Assembly (NCBI GenBank): GCA_945876185.1
Contig: CAMCMZ010000003.1
Location: 15,454 to 79,453, forward strand
DNA length: 64,000 nucleotides
Origin: Candidatus Kuenenia stuttgartensis
GTDB lineage: Bacteria > Planctomycetota > UBA11346
Direction: 5' to 3'
In this document: positions 13,665-61,766 of the stretch, piece by piece
How positions within the stretch are numbered: position 1 is the stretch's first letter
How the letters are laid out: each line of letters begins with the position of its first letter
Translations under genes and position numbers: made by a program
The notes under the pieces: model-generated
What the model saw: the letters and a program-made list of their open reading frames with translations, nothing else
What the model was told of the DNA's origin: nothing
Database searches by the model: none

Positions 13665-13768
13665 AAAAATCGCAAGTGCGCCCCAGATGCAAGGCGGGAG
13701 GAGGGAGTTTGGCAGCGCCAAATGACCGACGACCAACGCAGCAGATGGGGTGCAATTGCGATTTTAGG
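13665..13768 (-). repeat. 102-bp structured repeat, family B
   Basis: Reverse-complement copy that begins TGA-A-CCT after the stop of the DUF2934 gene; inner hairpin TTTGGC-GCT-GCCAAA. Confidence 0.9.
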
Positions 13769-36385: not shown

Positions 36386-37513
36386 ATGCATCTCCTCTGC
36401 CAGCGCGACATCCTCCTGGCCGCCATCCAGGCGGCCGACGCCATCGTTCCGACCAACTCGACCAAACCGATCTTGAGCAACCTCCTCATCGAGGCGCTGG
36501 AAGACCGCGTCGAGATCGTGGCCACCGACACCCAGGTCGGCCTGCGCGCCGTGGTACGCCGGATTGAGGTCCGTGCCCCCGGCCAGGCGGTCGTCAACGC
36601 ACGGCAGATCTCGGCGATCCTGAAGGAGTCGCAGTCGAGCACGGTGAACATCCACCTGGAAACCGGCACCGACCGCCACCTCATGAAGGTCGAACTGTCC
36701 GATGGTCTGTACCAAGTGCCCGCGCTCGTCGGTGAAAGCCTGCCGCCGATATCGCCGTTCCCGACCAGCCACGAGACCGTGCGCCTGATGGCCAGCCGCC
36801 TCGATGAGATGCTCAACCAGACCGCATTCGCGATGGATAAAGACCGCACCAGCGCCGTGCTGTCCGGTCTCAGCCTGTCCTACGGCAACAGCGAATTCAT
36901 CCTAGCTGCGACCGATGGCAAGGTGCTGTGCGAGGCCGTCGAGCGCGCCGACATCTTCAATGTCAAAGATCGCGTCAACGTGGTCGTACCTGCCGGCACC
37001 GTGGGTCACCTGCAGCGCATCATGTCGGCGGCGCGTCCTGATACGGTGGAGATCACCATCGCGGGCAAACTCGCCTTCCTGCGTCTGGTCACCCTCACCG
37101 GACTCCATATCGAATTGTCGAGCCGGCTCGTTGAAGGAACGTTCCCCTCCTACCGCGCCGCACTGCCCAGCGCAGGCGGCAGCGCACGCGTGACCTTCCC
37201 TACCGCCGATCTCGCGGCCGCTGTGCGTCGTGTCGCGCTCATGGTCAGCCAGACCAGTCGCGGCGTGGTCATGCAGCTTGAACCCGGCCAGGCGACCTTC
37301 ACCAACCTGAACTACACCAACGGCAGCGCGCGCATTCCGGTGCCCTGCGAATACGCCGGCGCGCCGGTCAAACTCGGCGTCGACGTGAAGTACCTCGGTG
37401 ACGTGTTGCGCGTCTATCGCAGTGATCACATCGGCATCGACCTCGGTCGCGGCTTGGTCATGCGCGAGCCCGACGCGACCTACCTGATCATGCCGATCAG
37501 CCTGCCGAACTGA
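36386..37513 (+). CDS. dnaN: DNA polymerase III beta sliding clamp
   Basis: STKPILSNLLI, ATDTQV, AMDKDRTSAVLSG, ATDGKVL, SRLVEGTFPSY, YLIMP. Confidence 0.95.
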   Translation: MHLLCQRDILLAAIQAADAIVPTNSTKPILSNLLIEALEDRVEIVATDTQVGLRAVVRRIEVRAPGQAVVNARQISAILKESQSSTVNIHLETGTDRHLMKVELSDGLYQVPALVGESLPPISPFPTSHETVRLMASRLDEMLNQTAFAMDKDRTSAVLSGLSLSYGNSEFILAATDGKVLCEAVERADIFNVKDRVNVVVPAGTVGHLQRIMSAARPDTVEITIAGKLAFLRLVTLTGLHIELSSRLVEGTFPSYRAALPSAGGSARVTFPTADLAAAVRRVALMVSQTSRGVVMQLEPGQATFTNLNYTNGSARIPVPCEYAGAPVKLGVDVKYLGDVLRVYRSDHIGIDLGRGLVMREPDATYLIMPISLPN

Positions 37514-37514
37514 A

Positions 37515-37619
37515 CCTAAAAATCGCAATTGCACCCCATCTGCTGCGTTGGTCGTCAGTCATTGGGCGCTGCCCAACTCCTTCCTCCCGCCTAGCATCTG
37601 GGGCGCACTTGCGATTTTT
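37515..37619 (+). repeat. 102-bp structured repeat, family B
   Basis: TGA-A-CCT-AAAAATCGCAATTGCACCCCA...TGGGGCGCACTTGCGATTTTT directly after the dnaN stop. Confidence 0.92.
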
Positions 37620-50351: not shown

Positions 50352-51107
50352 ATGGTTTCGGACACAAGGCAGCGTCGTAGCCGCCGTGCATCCGGGTTCA
50401 CGTTGTTGGAAGTGATGATCGCGGTGGCGATCCTGACCATAACCACGGGTGCGGTCATGGCTGGGTTTGCCGGTCTGGTCGGCGTCCGGCGCGAATCCAA
50501 CGACGTCAATACGATCAATGCCCTGCTCAGGGACCTCGACAACCGTATTCAGGGCGCCTCGCCGGAAGACATTCTCAGCGCAAACACCTGGCTGCGGCCC
50601 CGGCCGGCGCTCGCCGCCGACAACACCATCGCCACGATTGACAGCAACAATGGTCCGCTTGACGACAGTTCCCTGATCGCGCTGGGTCTGCTTGACGGTG
50701 AAGGGTCGGGGATCAACGGCTTGGCCGTGTATATCGAGTATTATCGCGGCCTGCGGACGATATCCGACCCGGTCTCGGGCCGGGAATCGTTGGATACCCT
50801 CCCACCCTATGCCCAGATGTTGTCCAATCCCGCCTTCGACTGGCAGCGGACCCTTCGGACACCGCACAATGCCTTAACGACAACGGCCTTTGCCAAACCA
50901 CCGTCCCCGACGGCCTATGATTTCCTGATTCCGAGCCTTAATCCAGTCCCGGCCGTCTACCCGGCGCTCAACAGCCTCAATCGGGACTCGGATTGGCACC
51001 TGGTCATCCGCCTCATCGTCGTGTGGAAGAGCCAAAGCGGACAGGCCATCAACGGGTTTCGCTCCAAAGAACTGATCACCGGTCGTCGCATTCCACGGAT
51101 CGACTAA
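50352..51107 (+). CDS. Type IV prepilin-like minor pilin/pseudopilin (PilV-like position)
   Basis: Class III signal RRSRRASG/FTLLEVMIAVAIL with E5. Confidence 0.85.
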   Translation: MVSDTRQRRSRRASGFTLLEVMIAVAILTITTGAVMAGFAGLVGVRRESNDVNTINALLRDLDNRIQGASPEDILSANTWLRPRPALAADNTIATIDSNNGPLDDSSLIALGLLDGEGSGINGLAVYIEYYRGLRTISDPVSGRESLDTLPPYAQMLSNPAFDWQRTLRTPHNALTTTAFAKPPSPTAYDFLIPSLNPVPAVYPALNSLNRDSDWHLVIRLIVVWKSQSGQAINGFRSKELITGRRIPRID

Positions 51108-51111
51108 TCCT

Positions 51112-52593
51112 ATGGGCACTCACGGCATCAGAATGCATGGCGCGTACACCCTGGTCGAGGTGACCATCGCCGTGCTCATCCTCGCTGTGGCCGCCGCCAT
51201 GTCGGTTGAAGCATCGCTCGCGTCGGCGCGCCACGCGGCCCTGGCCTCGGCCCAGGACACCATCACGGATGATGGCCATGAGATCCTACGCACCATCTGC
51301 GAGGATCTCGGGGCCAGCGCCTGGCAGTTTGCCGATGACCAGACGACCTATTCGGTGGAAGAAGGCTGGCGACGGGATGGAAGCAGTGATGGCGGTATCC
51401 TACCCTCAGGAGTGAACTTTGCGACGGACCGTGGACTGCGCTACTACCCTTTCGTGCTCCAGCAGACCAGCGACGGAACCCTCAACACGGAAGGATTGCC
51501 CCAGGGCAGCAGCCCCAAGGTTCCCATGACCTGGTTCAAGCGTGCTGGGGACCAACTGACTACACCCACATGGCCGGACGTAGGGCAACCGTTCGCGCGC
51601 GGCATCCATTGGCCATTGAACCTTCCGGGCAAGCCGACCGACCGCGACACCGTTTTCAGCAACCCCACCCGGAATGCCGCGCAGTATAAACTGTATATCG
51701 ATAGCTTCTTCGCCCGATCCCAGGAACTCGTGTTCCTCAAAACCACTGCCGGCGGGTGGCCCCGGCCCATCCAGATTGGCACACAATGCGTCTTGCAGCG
51801 GGGGGAACCAGCGACCGGCATCCGGGGTTCCGTCGCCGACTGGCAGGCGGCCCAGGCCCAGATCGGTACCGCGAATGACACCCTGGCCTGGCGGCAGGGG
51901 CTCGGAGTCTCCTATGCTTCCCCTTGGCGGCGCCTGACGGCGAATGCCACCGCTTTCGATTATGTCGATCCCACCCTGCCGGCACCATGGGATCCCCTGG
52001 TTTCAGCCCCGCAATTGTATGGGCGGGAACTGTCAGCCGCGCGGGTCAACGCCAATGCTTCGGGCAATCTCAACGTGCAACTCAACTGGGAAACCATGCG
52101 GGACACCTCGCTGGCACCCCAGAATGGCCCCCTGCCGCAGGGGTTCGCCAACAATCTGCGCGAATACACCTATGCCGTGATCCCGTGTCCTGGCAACGTC
52201 GGCCAATTGGGCCGTCTGGTGCGGGCCTACCGCGACGATCCCGGGTTCATCCCATCGGCGGATCAGTACATCGCCAGTGGTACCGTCCTCGTTACCACCA
52301 CGGCCGGCGCCGCTTCCGTGCCGACGGTGACGACCTCGAAAACCGTATATGTCATCATCGATCGGGTGCTGTCGGATTCGGTTGTGCGGGTGGTCTTCGA
52401 CACCGCGCGAACCGATCCCAACCTGCGCATCAACCAGGTGCGCATCCGGTTGTACCTGGCCAGGCGGGTCGAAGGTTCCGACATGGGGGTCTTCCGTCGG
52501 CTTGAATGCCTGGCCACCCTCAATTCCCGTAGCAGCAATCCCGACATGACCAATGACCTCTCTGCGCTGGGTTCGGTCCCGTTCCCATACTGA
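51112..52593 (+). CDS. Type IV prepilin-like minor pilin (PilW/GspJ-like position)
   Basis: MHGA/YTLVEVTIAVLIL hydrophobic N-terminal helix with E5. Confidence 0.8.
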   Translation: MGTHGIRMHGAYTLVEVTIAVLILAVAAAMSVEASLASARHAALASAQDTITDDGHEILRTICEDLGASAWQFADDQTTYSVEEGWRRDGSSDGGILPSGVNFATDRGLRYYPFVLQQTSDGTLNTEGLPQGSSPKVPMTWFKRAGDQLTTPTWPDVGQPFARGIHWPLNLPGKPTDRDTVFSNPTRNAAQYKLYIDSFFARSQELVFLKTTAGGWPRPIQIGTQCVLQRGEPATGIRGSVADWQAAQAQIGTANDTLAWRQGLGVSYASPWRRLTANATAFDYVDPTLPAPWDPLVSAPQLYGRELSAARVNANASGNLNVQLNWETMRDTSLAPQNGPLPQGFANNLREYTYAVIPCPGNVGQLGRLVRAYRDDPGFIPSADQYIASGTVLVTTTAGAASVPTVTTSKTVYVIIDRVLSDSVVRVVFDTARTDPNLRINQVRIRLYLARRVEGSDMGVFRRLECLATLNSRSSNPDMTNDLSALGSVPFPY

Positions 52594-52622: not shown

Positions 52623-55600
52623 ATGCAACTCACCGCCCGTTCCAACCCAAAACCGACGCCGCGCAGCGGCAACGCCATCGTCCTTAGCTTGGCCCTGGTC
52701 GTCGTGATCGGTTCGCTCCTCGCGACCACCACCACCAGTTCCGTGGCGACTTTGCAGTGGGCGGTCCGTGAGTCGGATCGGCAGACGGCTCTCTCAGCGG
52801 TCAACATGGTCATATCGCGCCGGGAACTGAGGGTGGTCCAGTTGGGCCAGACCGGCGACCCCGAATCATTTGTCGATTATCAGGACAATTTCGGTGTCGA
52901 CCAGGTCGGATCCTGCACCGTGCAGTGGAAGGTGAGCCCAGTCCACACCCCCCCAAAAAATGCGCTTGGCCAGGTGCAGGACTACATCGCCAATCCACCG
53001 CCCCAGGAACCCACGGGAACCGTCGACTCGCACCAGTTGCCCAATGATACGGTCTACCTCTATGAAGTTGCGGCCAAAGCCACGATCACCAATGGCGATC
53101 AGATTCTCGCTTCTGCCCAGGGCGTGCGTTACACGTCGGTGCTCAAGACGCCGTTGTTCCAATACGTGATCTTCTACGCCCAACGCGGGCCCAAGGGCGA
53201 TCTCGAACTCAGCCATGGCGATAATTTGAATATCAAGGGCAGCGTTCACACCAATGGGGCCTTGTACATTGGCGCGCAAACCAAGGTCAATGACTGGGCG
53301 ACCCTGGCCGGACCTGGCTCGTATACCCGTATTGGTCCGGCGACCCGGGGTAGCGATACCAATGTGCCGGTGAAGGTGATCGGGGTGGATGGCATTTTCT
53401 GCCTGTCGAAACCCCTGTTATATGGAATGATGAATAAATTGCCGCTGGGGTCCCCCGCGTTGCAGCGGGTGGGGGCGGAAACGCTGACGAACTACTATGA
53501 CACCAGCACTGCGGACTCTTATCCCCGAGATGCGGAGGCCATTCAGGCGTTGTACCGAATGACCAGCGATCCGGCCACGCTCGCCGCCCATACGGGCCCG
53601 CTGATCACGACCAACCTGGGCGCAGTGGGTTCGACCAATGCCGTTGATTACATCAATCCCTACCGGGTACGGAACTACACCACCGGGTCATTGGCAACCA
53701 GGAACAGCGGTTTTAGCGGATCCCAGACGGATCAATTGACGGCGCGCACCATCAATCGGGTGAGTCCGGGTGGCCTAGGCATCCCTATCCTTGGCGCGGA
53801 CATCGGCACCACCCAGGCCAATGATTCCCGCGATGGTGCCACGGCCAATACCCAAGGGCGATGGCGGCAGTTGTCCACCGGCCCAGGGACCAGCAATCCG
53901 GCGGGATTCAATGGCCATGTGCGGACTTCGCTCACCGGAGGGTCGGTCAAGCAGTTGCCCACCAACCTGATCGGGGTCGAAGGCGCCGCCCTGCGCCCGC
54001 TGGAACCGCAGGCACTGCGGTATGTCACCAGCAACCCGCTCGTGGGCGGTGGGTTGCCGTACGACAGTGACCCGACCACGGATGACCATGAATGGGCGAC
54101 CCCCCTGTTCCGGACGGATGCGATTGGCACCACCACGACCGATCCTGGCGCATTCTGGGATACCAATGGGGTCCTGCTTGAAGAGCCCGGTAAATACCTG
54201 CGTCACGCCCTCGGTGATGGCCGGTTTCTCGCCCGGCGTCCGGAAACCCATGCAAAACCGGGAACTGGGTGGGATGTATACAGCTTCGCCTCGGGTGCCC
54301 CGGCTGCCATCACGGCCAGTGCGGCACCACTGGGCAAAGTGGGCCTGATCATCCGGGAACGCCCGGTTCCCAACACCGACATCTGGCCGGGCACGGTCAG
54401 CGTCCCACCATTACCACGGTCGGATCCGAATTCCTTGCCCTTCGCCTACGGCAAGGCCTTCCGGCCAGGTCGGCCAAAGATCACCCCAATCGATGTTGAC
54501 CATGGCACTTGGGCCGGTGCTGATTATGGGGCGTGGTTTGGGGCGTTTGGCTGGCAGGTGGGATCAACCAGGGCCAAAATCAACGAAACGACAGGGGGGC
54601 CGGCGCAGCCGGACCGATCCTTCGAACTGACCGTAGATGGAACTCTGACCGTCAGATCCAAGGCGTCTCCTGGGGTGTATTTCCCCAAGGGCACGGGAAC
54701 GAACCCAAGTTCGACGGAAATTAGGAGCGGTGTCATGGATCGTGAACGCCTGGGCAATACCGACCGCTATACCTATTTCTACAATGACAGTTGGCGCTTT
54801 TTCCATCTCAAGCAGCCGAACGCAGCCGTTCCCCAGCCAGGGGGGGTCACTTGGCGCACCTTCGACGATGGTTTCCCGAAAAGCCAGGCGGGGGCGGGGC
54901 GCTATTGGGGTAACAATATCAACAACCAATACTTACAGAGTTGGGGAAACACCCGCAATGGGGCCGAAAATGTTTATGACTGCGTCACCGGATCCGCTTT
55001 GCTCACCGGCAAACCGTTTTCGGTCGGTTCCAGCGGAACCGCGCCGACGAACTTGCCCCCGCACGTAAATTCACCGCTAGGGGGCGAATACTTCAGCTAC
55101 CGCCTGGAGGGCTTCCTGGTCCCGGAATTCAGCGAAAGCTATTTCATCGGTGCCGTCCATGACGATGGCGTCAAGATCTGGTTTGACGGCAAGCTGCTGT
55201 CAGAGACCAACCGATGGAGTTTCACGGGTCAAGGTGAGGCCTATGGTGGTTACACCGAGCGGCTGACCGCCGGCCAAGCCTATCCGATCGTGGTGGAATA
55301 TTTTTTCCAGGGCGGTAACGGTAGAGGCCTCACGACCAAATGGTCGAGCGCAACCCGAACCATTGAGGAGATTCCCATCGCCAGCTCCAACACCGGGGTT
55401 GGTTGGCACCAGACCGATCCCAATTATGGTTTCAAGAAACCAGGTGGAACGACGAGCGCTCCTACCGGTTTCAAGTCCATCCAAGGCCGCATCAAAGTCC
55501 CATCCTTATCACTGTTTCCCAGTGGGCAGCGGTTGAATGATCGATCCTTAGCAGACAACACCCTTCACAAGGTTGGGCTCATGTTGCGTGACGGGGCAGC

Positions 55601-58600
55601 TGGTCTTTCCCCCTGGCTCAGCGGTCGCGATGCCTATGTGATGATCGGTTATAACCGAATACGCGGAGTGTTCGTGCAGCAGCGTCGGGTAGCGGCGGAA
55701 ACGTGGTACAGCGAGGCCAGGGTGCCGAAGTGGTTCGTCGGGGCAGGGGCAAGCTTCAAAGAAGAAGATCAAAGCGGAAACATCAGGTTACCAACCAGCG
55801 ATAGTGCTGGGGAAGTCGATTCGTACCTCAAGCCTCTGGTCACCACTTCGGGCCAGACCGAGCCCTACAGCTTCAACAATAAGCGTTTCGAATATTCTAA
55901 TTATGTGTTGGCGGCTACGATGGAAAAATATCGTGAAGTCCTTCCTGTCCCCACCCCAACGGTTACCCAAACACCTGTCGACGTCGCCAATAATTCCCTG
56001 CGCTGCGAACCGCAGGAAATAATAGAGGAAGGTAGGAGGCATTCCGTGACTGTCCGGCGTACAGGCGGAGTGATCTCTCGTACCGTGAAACCCAGGAAAA
56101 CGATCTACCCCTACTGGAATCAGACGATCTACCTGCGTCTGAACAGCGCCTTGCCACCGTTACAGTCTGGCGATGATGGTAAGACGTTGACGCTGTATAA
56201 CCTCATTTCACCCTTTGGACAGAGGTGGTCTGGAAAGGTGTCCGTAACCCCCCCCACCGAAATCAAAATCGTAGAAGGGGACCCGAATTTCGATACCTAT
56301 TCCACAGATGGTTCAGATATCACGAGCCCCATCGCGACCCGTGCGGATCGGACCTACGAGAACAACGTGGTCTTCGTCAGAGACGGTCAGATCAATGGCA
56401 AGACAGCGGAATACATCAAAAATTCAATGAATTCCAATTCGGCCGGTGGTTGCATAACCTGGATCCTGCCGTCATCCGGCAATGCATGGCCGGACTCAAA
56501 TGGATTTCTCAAGGCACCGCGCCCAACAATTACGCAGGCCCATTATGATGCAGTCACTGATCCGACGATCCCGCCTGGCACCGTGGGCCGCTATCGCATA
56601 AACATCCCGAACGGAAATTACTATTTCGCCATCGACCGGGGTTGGAGCAACCGTGACGTCTACCAGGATATTAACAGTTGGGTGAGTCGTACGGGAGTGT
56701 GGAACGCAACGCCTGTGCCACAGGTTGTACCCTGGACCACCGCATGGAATCTGCCTGGGGTCGAGCGGGTGAAGACCTATAGCCATCGGCCGGATCTCTG
56801 GGGATCAACCAACGTCGCCTCTGTCAGCGGGGATGTTTTCAATACCTACCAGGCCCTAAATGCGGGCGCGGGCTTGGTTCCGATCATTCCGGACGGCGTG
56901 ACCAATCCTAGCGCTCGAACCCCATGGTATCTCACCGACGACATCCCGACGCCACCGTCCACCGCTTCATCGCCACCCTGGTCGGATGAGCAGAAACTGA
57001 TCTGGGATCCCAACCTGGAATCCGTGTGGTTGCGCATCGAACAGGATCCGGATCAACCCAAAATGGTCCGATTCGCCTGGTCGCCGAAGTCGACGCAGCC
57101 GCTGGATTCCGAATGGCAGTATGTTACCAAAGACTCCGGCACGACTTCGGTGCAGGGCAGAGACAACGCCAATGCGAGTCCTGACATTCTGCGGATCGAT
57201 CTGTCCCCGTCTGACACGCGCAGTATTTGGGGTGGCCAAACGGACCCGACGGCGCCCAATGATCAGATCCTGGCCGGGCCGTGCTTCCAGAACGCGGGAT
57301 TCACCTCCACCGGCAACGGGACCTCAGCCGCTTTCACCGCGACGATGAGCGACCTGAAAGTCGTGGTGGCAGGCGACTCCGCCGATGTCAATGGAGATGG
57401 CGTCATCGACACGAGCGACTGGTTCTCGCCCACGACGGGCAGCTCTGCGTCTCCAGAATCGGCCTACCTTGCCAGCCAATACCAGGTACTTTGGGGCCCT
57501 TACGACATCACCGAGGATTTCTTCACCTGGCAAGAGACCCAGGGCAATGCCGGGCGCACCGCCTGGGAGGACTGGATGTACAGTCCGCGCGAGTTCTGGA
57601 GCCAGTCCCGATACTGGTACAATGCAGCCGTCAACGATACGTTCACCGATGCAAGGCATGTTGACAAGGAAAAGGATCCTGGCGGCCACAGCAACCTCGC
57701 CAATCGCCTGGCCCTGGCCCAGACCACCCTGCTCACCCTGAATATGGGCCGTTACGACGCCATCAACCAGACCGGTATCCAGGGCTACCTGCGCAACCGC
57801 CGTTTGGTTGATGCGGTGCAGAATCGCCCCTTCACCGATTCGCAGAATAGGAACCCCCCAGCGGTGTATCTCGGGGACCAGGGCCTGCTTCTCAAGGATT
57901 CATTCAATGGCCTGATCTATGCAGCGCGCACCAACCGCTATCCCTGGAACCCAACGATTCCCAACGGTAGCACATATGCCGGAATGAATCTGGCTGCCGC
58001 CTGGGATCTTGGTGCCAACCTGTTCCCGAATACGACCCCAAATCTGTCCGGCACGAACCCCCTGGCGGATGTCGTCATCGCCAACCGTGCGAATCTCAAT
58101 GGATTGACCGCATCGCGCTCGGCCAATCGCATCGACCCGGCCACGAGAATTGTGTACCACCGGCTCCAGTCCTATACGGATCTGCTGGGTGCCCCTGCGA
58201 CCAAACCCCAGGATTTCCACCATGGGGTCCGGGTGGTCAATGCCTCCGACATCCACTGGGGTTTTCCCAATCCCACAGGTGCAACCGCAGGGACATTTGG
58301 CGAGAGCAAGACGTCAATCGTCACCCCAAACCAACTCTACCTGTGCGGCGACGTCAATACCATTGACTATCCACTGACGACGCGCAATGCGCAGACCCCG
58401 GTTCGCCATACCGCCCCGTTGGCGGTGATGGGCGATGTCATCCACCTGCTGTCCAACGCGTTTTCTCCGTACAATCCGGCCAACCCGGTCAGGAGTTATG
58501 CCATCCCTTCCATCTACAAGGACAAGTCGATCACCCCCCCCCCCGCCCCCGACCCCGACCGTGCCCCCGACCCCGCCCCCGATCCAGGCCTCGATCACCG

Positions 58601-59121
58601 GGTCCGGCATCCTGGTCAATCCCACCCAGTACCCGGCCACGACGACCACCTACAACACCTGCATCCTGACCCACAATCAACCCACCACCCGGGCCACCGT
58701 TCTGGAAGGTCAGGGGGCGGCGTTCGTCGACACCATGCAGTTCATGGAGAACTGGAATGGTGCCAGCATGTATTTCAAGGGAAGTCTGGTGGTCATGGAT
58801 ACGCGTCGCTACACCCAGGCCTTTCTGCTCGATTTGGAAAAGCGGTATGGCCGCACCGTCTTCGGCACCACGGTTGCGAATGGTAGTCGGGTAGGGGGCA
58901 GACTCGAAGCCGCCCCGTTGACCGGGACAGAGGTGGCCGGGTGGCAAACCATCTACACGGGTCTGGGCCTGAACCAACAATGGGATGGATTTATTCCCCA
59001 GGCCTATGGCGTACCTTCCCGCATCTATTCCTTCAACAACGACCTTCTGACCCCGGAAGGCACCCCACCGTTCACGCCCTTCGGTGTGACCACCAGCGGC
59101 ATCGGCGGCTGGCTGCGTTGA
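52623..59121 (+). CDS. Giant PilX/GspK-like tip adhesin (~2165 aa if intact) with a PA14 domain; frameshifted at C11 tract 58534-58544
   Basis: RSG/NAIVLSLALVV N-terminus lacking E5; PA14 (FSYRLEG.L.P...HDDG..IWFDG...L.AG..YPIVVEY); DVNGDGVIDTSD loop; the conserved-looking C-terminus (MENW..FKGSLV..P.R.YSF..D....TPP.TP) lies in the +1 frame (ORF 58435-59121). Confidence 0.8.
58534..58544 (+). repeat. C11 homopolymer at the frameshift point
   Basis: ATCA-C11-GCC; C10 or C13 would join the two reading frames. Confidence 0.9.
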
Positions 59122-59122
59122 G

Positions 59123-59227
59123 CCTAAAAATCGCAATTGCACCCCAGCTGCGGCGTTGGTCGTCAGTCATTGGGCGCTGCCCAACTCCTTCCTCCCGCCT
59201 TGCATCTGGGGCGCACTTGCGATTTTT
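59123..59227 (+). repeat. 102-bp structured repeat, family B
   Basis: TGA-G-CCT-AAAAATCGCAATTGC... directly after the stop (59119-59121) of the +1-frame adhesin C-terminus. Confidence 0.92.
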
Positions 59228-59339
59228 AATGGAAATTGTTGGTGCGGCGGTTTCGACGATGGTGGAAAAGGTGAGGGCGGGAAATTCAAGTCGCCGTCGG
59301 TGTGCTTGAGTCCGATCCGCGCAGTCTAGCGTCGCGCGC

Positions 59340-61234: not shown

Positions 61235-61635
61235 GGAGCGTCGATGTCCACATCGACGAAGGACTTGGACATCCACGGCGATGTGGACATCGCCGCTCCG
61301 GTGGCGCCTCGTAGGAGCGTCGATGTCCACATCGACGAATGACTTGGACACCACGGCGATGTGGACATCGCCGCTCCTTTGGCGAGTGGCGTCTCGAATG
61401 GAGCGTCGATGTCCACATCGACGAAGGACTTGGACACCACGGCGATGTGGACATCGCCGCTCCTTTGGCGAGTGGCGTCTCGTAGGAGCGTCGATGTCCA
61501 CATCGACGAATGGCTTGGACACCACGGCGATGTGGACATCGCCGCTCCTTTGGCGAGTGGCGTTTCGAATGGAGCGTCGATGTCCACATCGACGAATGGT
61601 TTGAACACCGACGGCGATGTGGACATCGCCGCTCC
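61235..61635. repeat. BIME-like tandem array of 5 inverted REP doublets
   Basis: Units start at 61235, 61314, 61400, 61485 and 61571; each is GGAGCGTCGATGTCCACATCGACG, a 16-17-nt linker, then CGGCGATGTGGACATCGCCGCTCC. Confidence 0.9.
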
Positions 61636-61766
61636 TGACGGCCGCCACTCGTCCAAACGGTGAGACGCCAAGGTTCCCGGGAAAGCAGGACACCGCCACG
61701 CAAGCGCCGCCTGCAGATCGGGCTTGCTACTGGTGGCAGGGGGGCGGGAGCGTAGATCCAGGTCTC

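Follow-up and report, generated by a model that had tools for sequence, protein, structure and literature searches.

A poly-C tract of two lengths at the frame break of a putative pilus-associated protein gene from an uncultured planctomycete

Introduction

When a large gene breaks at a run of eleven cytosines and a plausible C-terminus continues in the neighboring frame, is the run one state of a slipping tract, the mark of a gene that is being lost, or an error of the assembly? This question is raised by a stretch of 64,000 nucleotides, here called the window, from Candidatus Kuenenia stuttgartensis (GTDB lineage Bacteria; Planctomycetota; UBA11346; GenBank assembly GCA_945876185.1, contig CAMCMZ010000003.1, positions 15,454 to 79,453 of the forward strand). 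A first-pass annotation, made from the letters of the window, had read the broken gene as that of a pilus-tip adhesin whose C-terminus is switched on and off by the length of the tract. It is found here that the same gene occurs in public assemblies with a tract of ten cytosines (C10) as well as of eleven (C11), in otherwise identical sequence. The reading that we favor, with moderate confidence, is that this length variation is real and arises by slipped-strand mispairing, and that the window holds the OFF allele. Most likely the locus is one more slippage on/off site of a familiar type and no new mechanism. It has the look of a hypermutable site that arose recently, perhaps by accident, and not of a contingency locus selected long ago.

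The tract and the two reading frames

The sequence ATCA-C11-G is present in the window at the break of the long frame, and this sequence and all the coordinates first assigned to the break, including the stop at 58886, are correct. The C run occupies positions 58534-58544, and its flanks read AAG TCG ATC A-C11-G and then CCCCCGACCCC. The long frame has its start at TTG 52611 or, according to public gene callers, at ATG 52623, which gives a product of 2091 or 2087 amino acids (aa), respectively. It reads KDKSITPPPAPDPDRAP around the tract and KDKSITPPPAPDPDRAPDPAPDPGLDHRVRH through it, and ends at the stop codon 58884-58886, with the last 114 residues of the C11 product, which include PAPDPDRAPDPAPDPGLDHR, forming an out-of-frame tail. 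Translation of the +1 frame, which reads PPPPPPTPTVPPTPPPIQASITGSGILVNPTQYPATTTTYNTCILTHNQPTTR / PPPPPPTPTVPPTPPPIQASITGSGILVNPTQYPATTTTYNTCILTHNQPTTRATVLEGQGAAFVDTMQFMENWNG, ends with GTPPFTPFGVTTSGIGGWLR and has its stop codon at 59119-59121, confirmed that this frame carries a Pro/Thr linker and a coherent domain up to 59121. Simple sequence repeat contingency loci are recognized by homopolymers of about 8 nt or more within an open reading frame (ORF) or promoter, and the C11 run lies within an ORF. The product also depends on the tract, being of 2165 aa with the conserved C-terminus for C10 and of 2087 aa without it for C11. The tract lies 91% along the gene and not near its 5' end. The features at the break are the following:

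58534-58544, + strand: C11 homopolymer at which the frame shifts; two other public assemblies have C10 here.
52623-58886, + strand: OFF reading frame as found in the window, 2087 aa, with a PilX/GspK-like hydrophobic N-terminus (RSGNAIVLSLALVVVIGSLL).
58545-59121, + strand: +1-frame continuation with the remaining linker and the conserved C-terminal domain of about 175 aa, which has GTPPFTPFGVTTSGIGGWLR as its end, fused to the long frame only with C10.

For the annotation of this metagenome-assembled genome (MAG), the consequence is that a 'truncated' gene and a separate ORF of 228 aa become one gene of 2165 aa with a variable tract. An exact-protein look-up of the 228-aa ORF returned no record.

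Tract length in public assemblies

Exact-protein look-ups with the neighboring genes recovered four public contigs that carry the locus. Compared with the window, they show:

Logan contig of ERR5863101: 9179 bp compared, C11, 2087 aa, otherwise equal to the window.
European Nucleotide Archive (ENA) contig ERZ27280287: 5168 bp compared, C11, 2087 aa, otherwise equal to the window.
Logan contig of ERR3719150: 9178 bp compared, C10, 2165 aa, 0 mismatches.
ENA contig ERZ27280257: 20.4 kb compared, C10, 2165 aa, 4 single-nucleotide polymorphisms (SNPs), of which two fall in a tandem repeat close to where the contig ends.

The two Logan contigs differ from each other by 1 gap and 0 mismatches over 9179 bp, and the tract length varies between otherwise identical genomes, as seen in consensus sequences only and in at least two read sets. 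The 90% protein cluster likewise holds two forms only, of 2087 aa and 2165 aa. Of the two lengths first predicted to restore a protein of about 2165 aa, C10 does so in these assemblies, and none with C13 was seen. The same gene provides an internal control, in that its runs C8 (56248-56255), C7 (52948) and G7 (54840), which are the next-longest in the 20 kb common to the datasets, show no difference between them. The fact that at least two read sets differ in the majority length, with each length found in more than one assembly, favors real variation, and the occurrence of an in-frame and an out-of-frame allele is as slipped-strand mispairing would predict. Attempts to widen the comparison were less productive. 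A scan of Joint Genome Institute (JGI) metagenomes for the tract and its flanks gave 0 matches, look-ups with pyruvate phosphate dikinase (PPDK) and diaminopimelate (DAP) epimerase, chosen so that whole contigs of 56 kb could be compared, returned either nothing or just one contig of 1.1 kb, and the run and assembly accessions were mentioned in no paper found by a literature search.

The first-pass annotation had regarded an assembly error as equally possible. Pure error is less likely than that, because C10 and C11 alleles occur in otherwise identical assemblies. According to this explanation the tract would be C10 everywhere, and a C11 miscall would have been passed to the MAG, to a MEGAHIT contig and to the Logan contig of a single read set. 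It gains from the fact that the genome is a MAG (82% complete, in 123 contigs), that homopolymers of 10-11 are a classic site of indel errors, that the C11 assemblies are mutually 100% identical and could all stem from ERR5863101, and that for parts of ERR3719150 Logan has only short contigs (1.1 kb), a hint of modest depth there. Nonetheless, C11 comes from up to three pipelines (the MAG, a k141 MEGAHIT-type contig and Logan), possibly on one read set, and C10 from two pipelines on the other set. An artefact would then require the wrong length in most of the reads, because several pipelines agree for each read set, whereas the short-read indel error at runs of 10-11 nt is of a few percent and not above 50%. 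The absence of any discrepancy at the C7, G7 and C8 runs also speaks against it, and we consider an artefact unlikely.

A one-off inactivating frameshift, by which the population in the window would have lost the gene in an early step of pseudogenization with no meaningful reversal, is a less probable explanation still. The datasets are not an identical clone, since they differ by 2 SNPs outside repeats in 20 kb, and for this reason one fixed indel suffices to explain the two alleles. The loss could be offset by a paralogous cassette on contig C46, and the tract itself may be a recent accident of a repeat linker. However, no other difference occurs over 9.2 kb, and the C-terminal domain is unaltered although out of frame, which means that the frameshift would have to be very recent. 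Moreover, runs of C10 or C11 are expected to keep slipping at a high rate, and reversal is mechanistically expected.

Recoding, in which C11 would still give the full-length protein through +1 ribosomal slippage on CCC-C or through slippage of the RNA polymerase, matches the exact +1 shift that is needed, CCC-C is a known +1-prone site, and consecutive Pro codons stall ribosomes, but this explanation is very unlikely given the lack of conservation of the site (all homologues are in frame, with neither a C run nor a frameshift there, whereas programmed frameshift sites are normally conserved and fixed) and the existence of an in-frame allele of the same gene; no stimulatory element was seen either, although no search for one was made.

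Conservation of the C-terminal domain

With the 191-aa segment of the +1 frame as query, a paralogue was found in the same genome on contig C46, where the domain closes an open frame of 2023 aa and is in frame with it, and homologues were found in 18 of 40 related genomes. In the strong matches from the related genomes the domain always ends an open frame of about 1500-2600 aa, whereas the window copy is the only one that sits in a frame of 230 aa. Alignment of the C10 allele with 11 homologues shows a strongly conserved domain, with blocks such as HNxPTTR and GSLVVxDxRRY and a terminal GTPPFxPFG...W.R, and five further homologues from named Planctomycetota MAGs, mostly of freshwater-lake samples, are consistent with this alignment. 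The homologues examined at the site of the tract number 16, the paralogue of the same genome and 15 other genes, and in all of them the domain is in frame, again in open frames of about 1500-2600 aa. In a profile search of 1.84 billion representatives, 134 proteins were matched, 69 of them below 1e-30, and in the full-length matches that were examined the domain ends a few residues from the C-terminus. As judged from sequence conservation, the long protein has its true, conserved C-terminus in the domain of the +1 frame.

The domain (about 175 aa, ending GTPPFxPFG..G.GxW.R) belongs to a rare family, with 134 representatives among the 1.84 billion proteins, which is found mostly in proteins of 1700-2600 aa and has a distant branch in proteins of 900-1500 aa. 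Short matches of 212-343 aa were considered as further genes split by a frameshift and were rejected, given that those read were in-frame contig-edge fragments of the upstream domain. AlphaFold2 gave a poor model for the last 660 aa, with a predicted local distance difference test score (pLDDT) of 49, and a moderate one for the last 330 aa, built with 29 sequences (pLDDT 63). The linker region has a pLDDT below 50 in both models, and therefore it is probably a flexible loop that tolerates a change of length.

Origin of the tract in a repeat linker

The tract is part of a longer repeat. Tandem Repeats Finder detected eight copies of CCCCCG at 58534-58581, and in the C10 frame the codons of this array are ACC CCC, CCC CCG, CCC CCG, ACC CCG, ACC GTG, CCC CCG, ACC CCG and CCC CCG. 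The long C run corresponds to the first two hexamer units, with the separating G replaced by a C, which is a synonymous CCG-to-CCC difference. The features of the linker are the following:

58534-58581, + strand: degenerate array of hexamers, (CCCCCG)x8, which in the C10 frame codes for the Pro/Thr linker PPPPPTPTVPPTPPP (Tandem Repeats Finder).
58527-58599, + strand: lineage-specific linker insert between 9-bp direct repeats TCGATCACC, absent from 16 of 16 homologues.

The direct repeats TCGATCACC are located at 58527-58535 and 58591-58599, with a spacing of 64 nt for C11 and of 63 nt, or 21 codons, for C10. At this site the closest orthologue, which is of the same genus and has 71% identity in the domain, reads NKDLTVTASGTSASVSGTNILVQPTQ, and the window in the C10 frame reads KDKSIT-PPPPPTPTVPPTPPPIQA-SITGSGILVNPTQ. 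A recent birth of the tract is suggested by the fact that the run is made of two adjoining hexamer units of a lineage-specific linker. The comparison of these sequences points to a recent, possibly accidental hypermutable site that was born in a young repeat linker and would not be an old switch. As a separate observation, the direct repeats encode Ser-Ile-Thr, and recombination between them would delete the linker together with the tract, in frame from the C10 allele only.

Across the genome (3.8 Mb, 66% GC), G/C runs of 8 nt occur 19 times, of 9 nt 6 times, of 10 nt not at all, and of 11 nt and 13 nt once each. When the fall-off, by a factor of 3-4 per extra base, is extrapolated, C11 appears as a mild outlier, although this extrapolation is our own. 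The G13 run (G000:C58:17480-17492) was considered as a tract of a surface gene and rejected, because it forms the last codons (PGSSGGGGEMATK) of an unrelated ORF of 360 aa, with an AT-richer spacer after it. In the 483 runs of 3 or more Pro residues encoded by the genome, at least two consecutive CCC codons occur in 23 cases versus about 70 expected from the overall use of Pro codons, and at least three in 2 cases versus about 12 expected. This avoidance of consecutive CCC suggests selection against C homopolymers in coding DNA.

Proposed mechanism and weight of the evidence

The favored reading would work as follows. The product of the gene would be a pilus-associated surface protein of 2165 aa, with a PilX/GspK-like N-terminal helix, a PA14 domain (carbohydrate-binding) and the C-terminal domain that defines the family. 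In this lineage a Pro/Thr linker of about eight CCCCCG/ACCCCG hexamers would have been inserted just before the C-terminal domain, and the missing G between its first two units would have created a C10 run, which could gain or lose one C through slipped-strand mispairing during replication. With C10 the protein would be intact. With C11 the frame would shift, and the C-terminal domain, the best-conserved module of the family, would be replaced by a nonsense tail of 114 residues, a loss that most likely abolishes or changes the function of the protein. Given the expected slippage, such a change may be reversible.

Several observations weigh against this reading. The alleles are known from assembly consensus sequences only, and the four assemblies may derive from only two read sets; given that a few SNPs separate these sets, one indel that became fixed would fit as well. 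At the site of the tract no Pro-rich segment and no run of 7 or more is present in the 16 homologues, including the paralogue of the same genome. Since the 3.8 Mb hold just two runs of at least 10, the C11 and the G13, a genome-wide set of phase-variable tracts was also rejected. In other words, the tract neither recurs in orthologues or paralogues nor belongs to such a set, which are the signs by which selection for a switch would be recognized. An OFF state at 91% of the ORF would be wasteful. Finally, the C-terminal domain had no match in Pfam, NCBIfam or PDB sequence searches, and the model of the last 330 aa had no fold match in a Foldseek search against the PDB.

Of the ON/OFF phase variation first proposed, the part that stands is a tract at the exact frame break with C10 and C11 alleles, and the part left in doubt by the lack of a tract in 16 homologues, by its position at 91% of the gene and by the scarcity of runs of at least 10 nt in the genome is that of an evolved switch. 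We hold only tentatively, as a rather doubtful possibility, that the tract is a true contingency switch of a free-living freshwater planctomycete, which would toggle only the C-terminal module and give two forms of the protein rather than silence it. If this toggle were true, it could serve bet-hedging, for example between attachment and the avoidance of phages or grazers, and it would carry classical phase variation beyond host-associated pathogens, to environmental bacteria of the Planctomycetota-Verrucomicrobiota-Chlamydiota (PVC) group. Should the variation in length prove real, it would mean that an uncultured, free-living planctomycete can acquire a homopolymer on/off site, and the route by which such a site is born, from a Pro/Thr linker of hexamer repeats, would be visible. 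The family affected, of large uncharacterized pilus-linked PA14 proteins, is a rare one. Given that the mechanism is textbook, what is gained concerns distribution and origin, and not principle.

Identity of the gene and its cassette

The first-pass annotation had called the product a tip adhesin. The gene order, the PilX/GspK-like N-terminus and the PA14 domain make a pilus-tip adhesin of the modular-pilin kind (PMC8179133) a reasonable inference from sequence, although the assignment lacks support from hidden Markov models (HMMs). The features on which it rests are the following:

50352-51107, + strand: prepilin-like gene 1, 251 aa, with an N-terminal methylation motif.
51112-52593, + strand: prepilin-like gene 2, 493 aa, with a weak N_methyl match.
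55083-55373, + strand: the sole recognized domain, PA14, at residues 825-921 when numbered from TTG 52611.

Both upstream genes match N_methyl/TIGR02532 and the long gene comes after them, in a cassette with prepilin genes as is found for the modular pilin class; N_methyl genes likewise lie on either side of the paralogue on C46. In the N-terminus of the long protein, RSG-NAIVLSLALVVVIGSLL, a hydrophobic helix comes after a Gly, and Glu5 is absent. The R-x-G and the hydrophobic helix are conserved, by eye, in 20 family members, with no Pfam or NCBIfam match in this region, and this N-terminus resembles those of GspK/PilX-type tip pseudopilins. A PilY1/PilC beta-propeller was not found, Pfam having given PA14 only and the C-terminal model having no Foldseek match in the PDB, and an autotransporter beta-barrel had no Pfam match with either the full 2165-aa or the 191-aa C-terminal query. 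Given that no beta-propeller and no autotransporter domain were found, the protein is not a member of the PilC/PilY1 or Pmp families.

The second cassette, on C46 (G000:C46:20336-26407; L040 5523-11408), is composed of a prepilin-like gene, a gene for a PA14 protein of 1961 aa and another prepilin-like gene. This cassette is intact, its PA14 protein has the same C-terminal domain, and there is no homopolymer tract in the approximately 2 kb checked at the 3' end.

Comparison with known systems

In Neisseria gonorrhoeae and Neisseria meningitidis, pilC1 and pilC2 encode large pilus-associated adhesins that are switched on and off by slipped-strand mispairing at a poly-G tract. The gene described here is similar in that a G/C homopolymer shifts the frame of a large pilus-associated protein. 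However, the tract of pilC lies in the 5' signal-peptide region, so that the OFF state gives almost no protein, and PilC/PilY1 proteins end in a beta-propeller and lack a pilin-like N-terminus, features of which neither is matched here (no Pfam match).

Modular type IV minor pilins and GspK/PilX tip pseudopilins, such as PilB of S. sanguinis (PMC8179133), combine a pilin-like N-terminal helix with bulky adhesive modules, an architecture that the protein described here may have too. The gene in the window shares with them its place next to prepilin genes and a presumed display at the filament tip. Unlike the described examples, the protein is far larger, with 2165 aa, its N-terminus lacks E5 and has no HMM match to the N_methyl, GspK or PilX models, and its C-terminal domain has no recognized fold. 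Phase variation is also not a feature of modular pilins.

Another parallel is found within the PVC superphylum itself. The PmpG adhesins of Chlamydia have poly-G/poly-C frameshift hot spots upstream of their C-terminal domain, one of the poly-C tracts lying about 510 nt from the gene end (PMC6740158), to be compared with about 580 nt here. In both cases a long G/C run is found in the ORF before a conserved C-terminal domain, within a family of large surface adhesins with paralogues, and frameshifted and intact alleles occur among near-identical genomes. The Pmps differ in being type V autotransporters of obligate intracellular pathogens, whereas no autotransporter domain was found here, and in having tracts in many paralogues and species and of many lengths, whereas here there is one gene with two lengths and with relatives that have no tract. 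The first-pass annotation knew of no description of such switching for PVC pilin cassettes; within the superphylum, poly-G/C switching of adhesins is known for Chlamydia PmpG (PMC6740158). For free-living Planctomycetes, a literature search found no paper on phase variation.

Repeats in the vicinity of the gene

Immediately downstream of the gene lies a further feature:

59126-59227, no strand assigned: 102-bp palindromic repeat, similar to repetitive extragenic palindromic (REP) elements or miniature inverted-repeat transposable elements (MITEs), which starts 5 nt past the stop at 59121 and within which both Logan contigs end (window 59150).

This element had been described as following the end of the +1 frame just as it follows real stops. 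A second 102-bp copy, at 37518-37619, does start 5 nt past the stop of an ORF ending at 37513, and the fact that both copies start 5 nt after stops, 59121 and 37513, supports 59121 as the true end of the gene. A third copy, at 13665-13766, is intergenic and does not come after the stop of any long ORF. The terminal arms of the repeat read AAAAATCGCAA(T/G)TGC(A/G)CCCCAG, and the region 59115-59240 has a predicted fold of -52.6 kcal/mol (z = -4.3).

Further downstream, a tandem array at 61235-61636, between an M48 peptidase gene and the next gene, is composed of about 4 copies of an 86-bp unit with 94% matches. Each unit has internal inverted repeats, and both ENA contigs end within the array. 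Two of the four SNPs between the datasets, at 61324 and 61329, are located inside this array.

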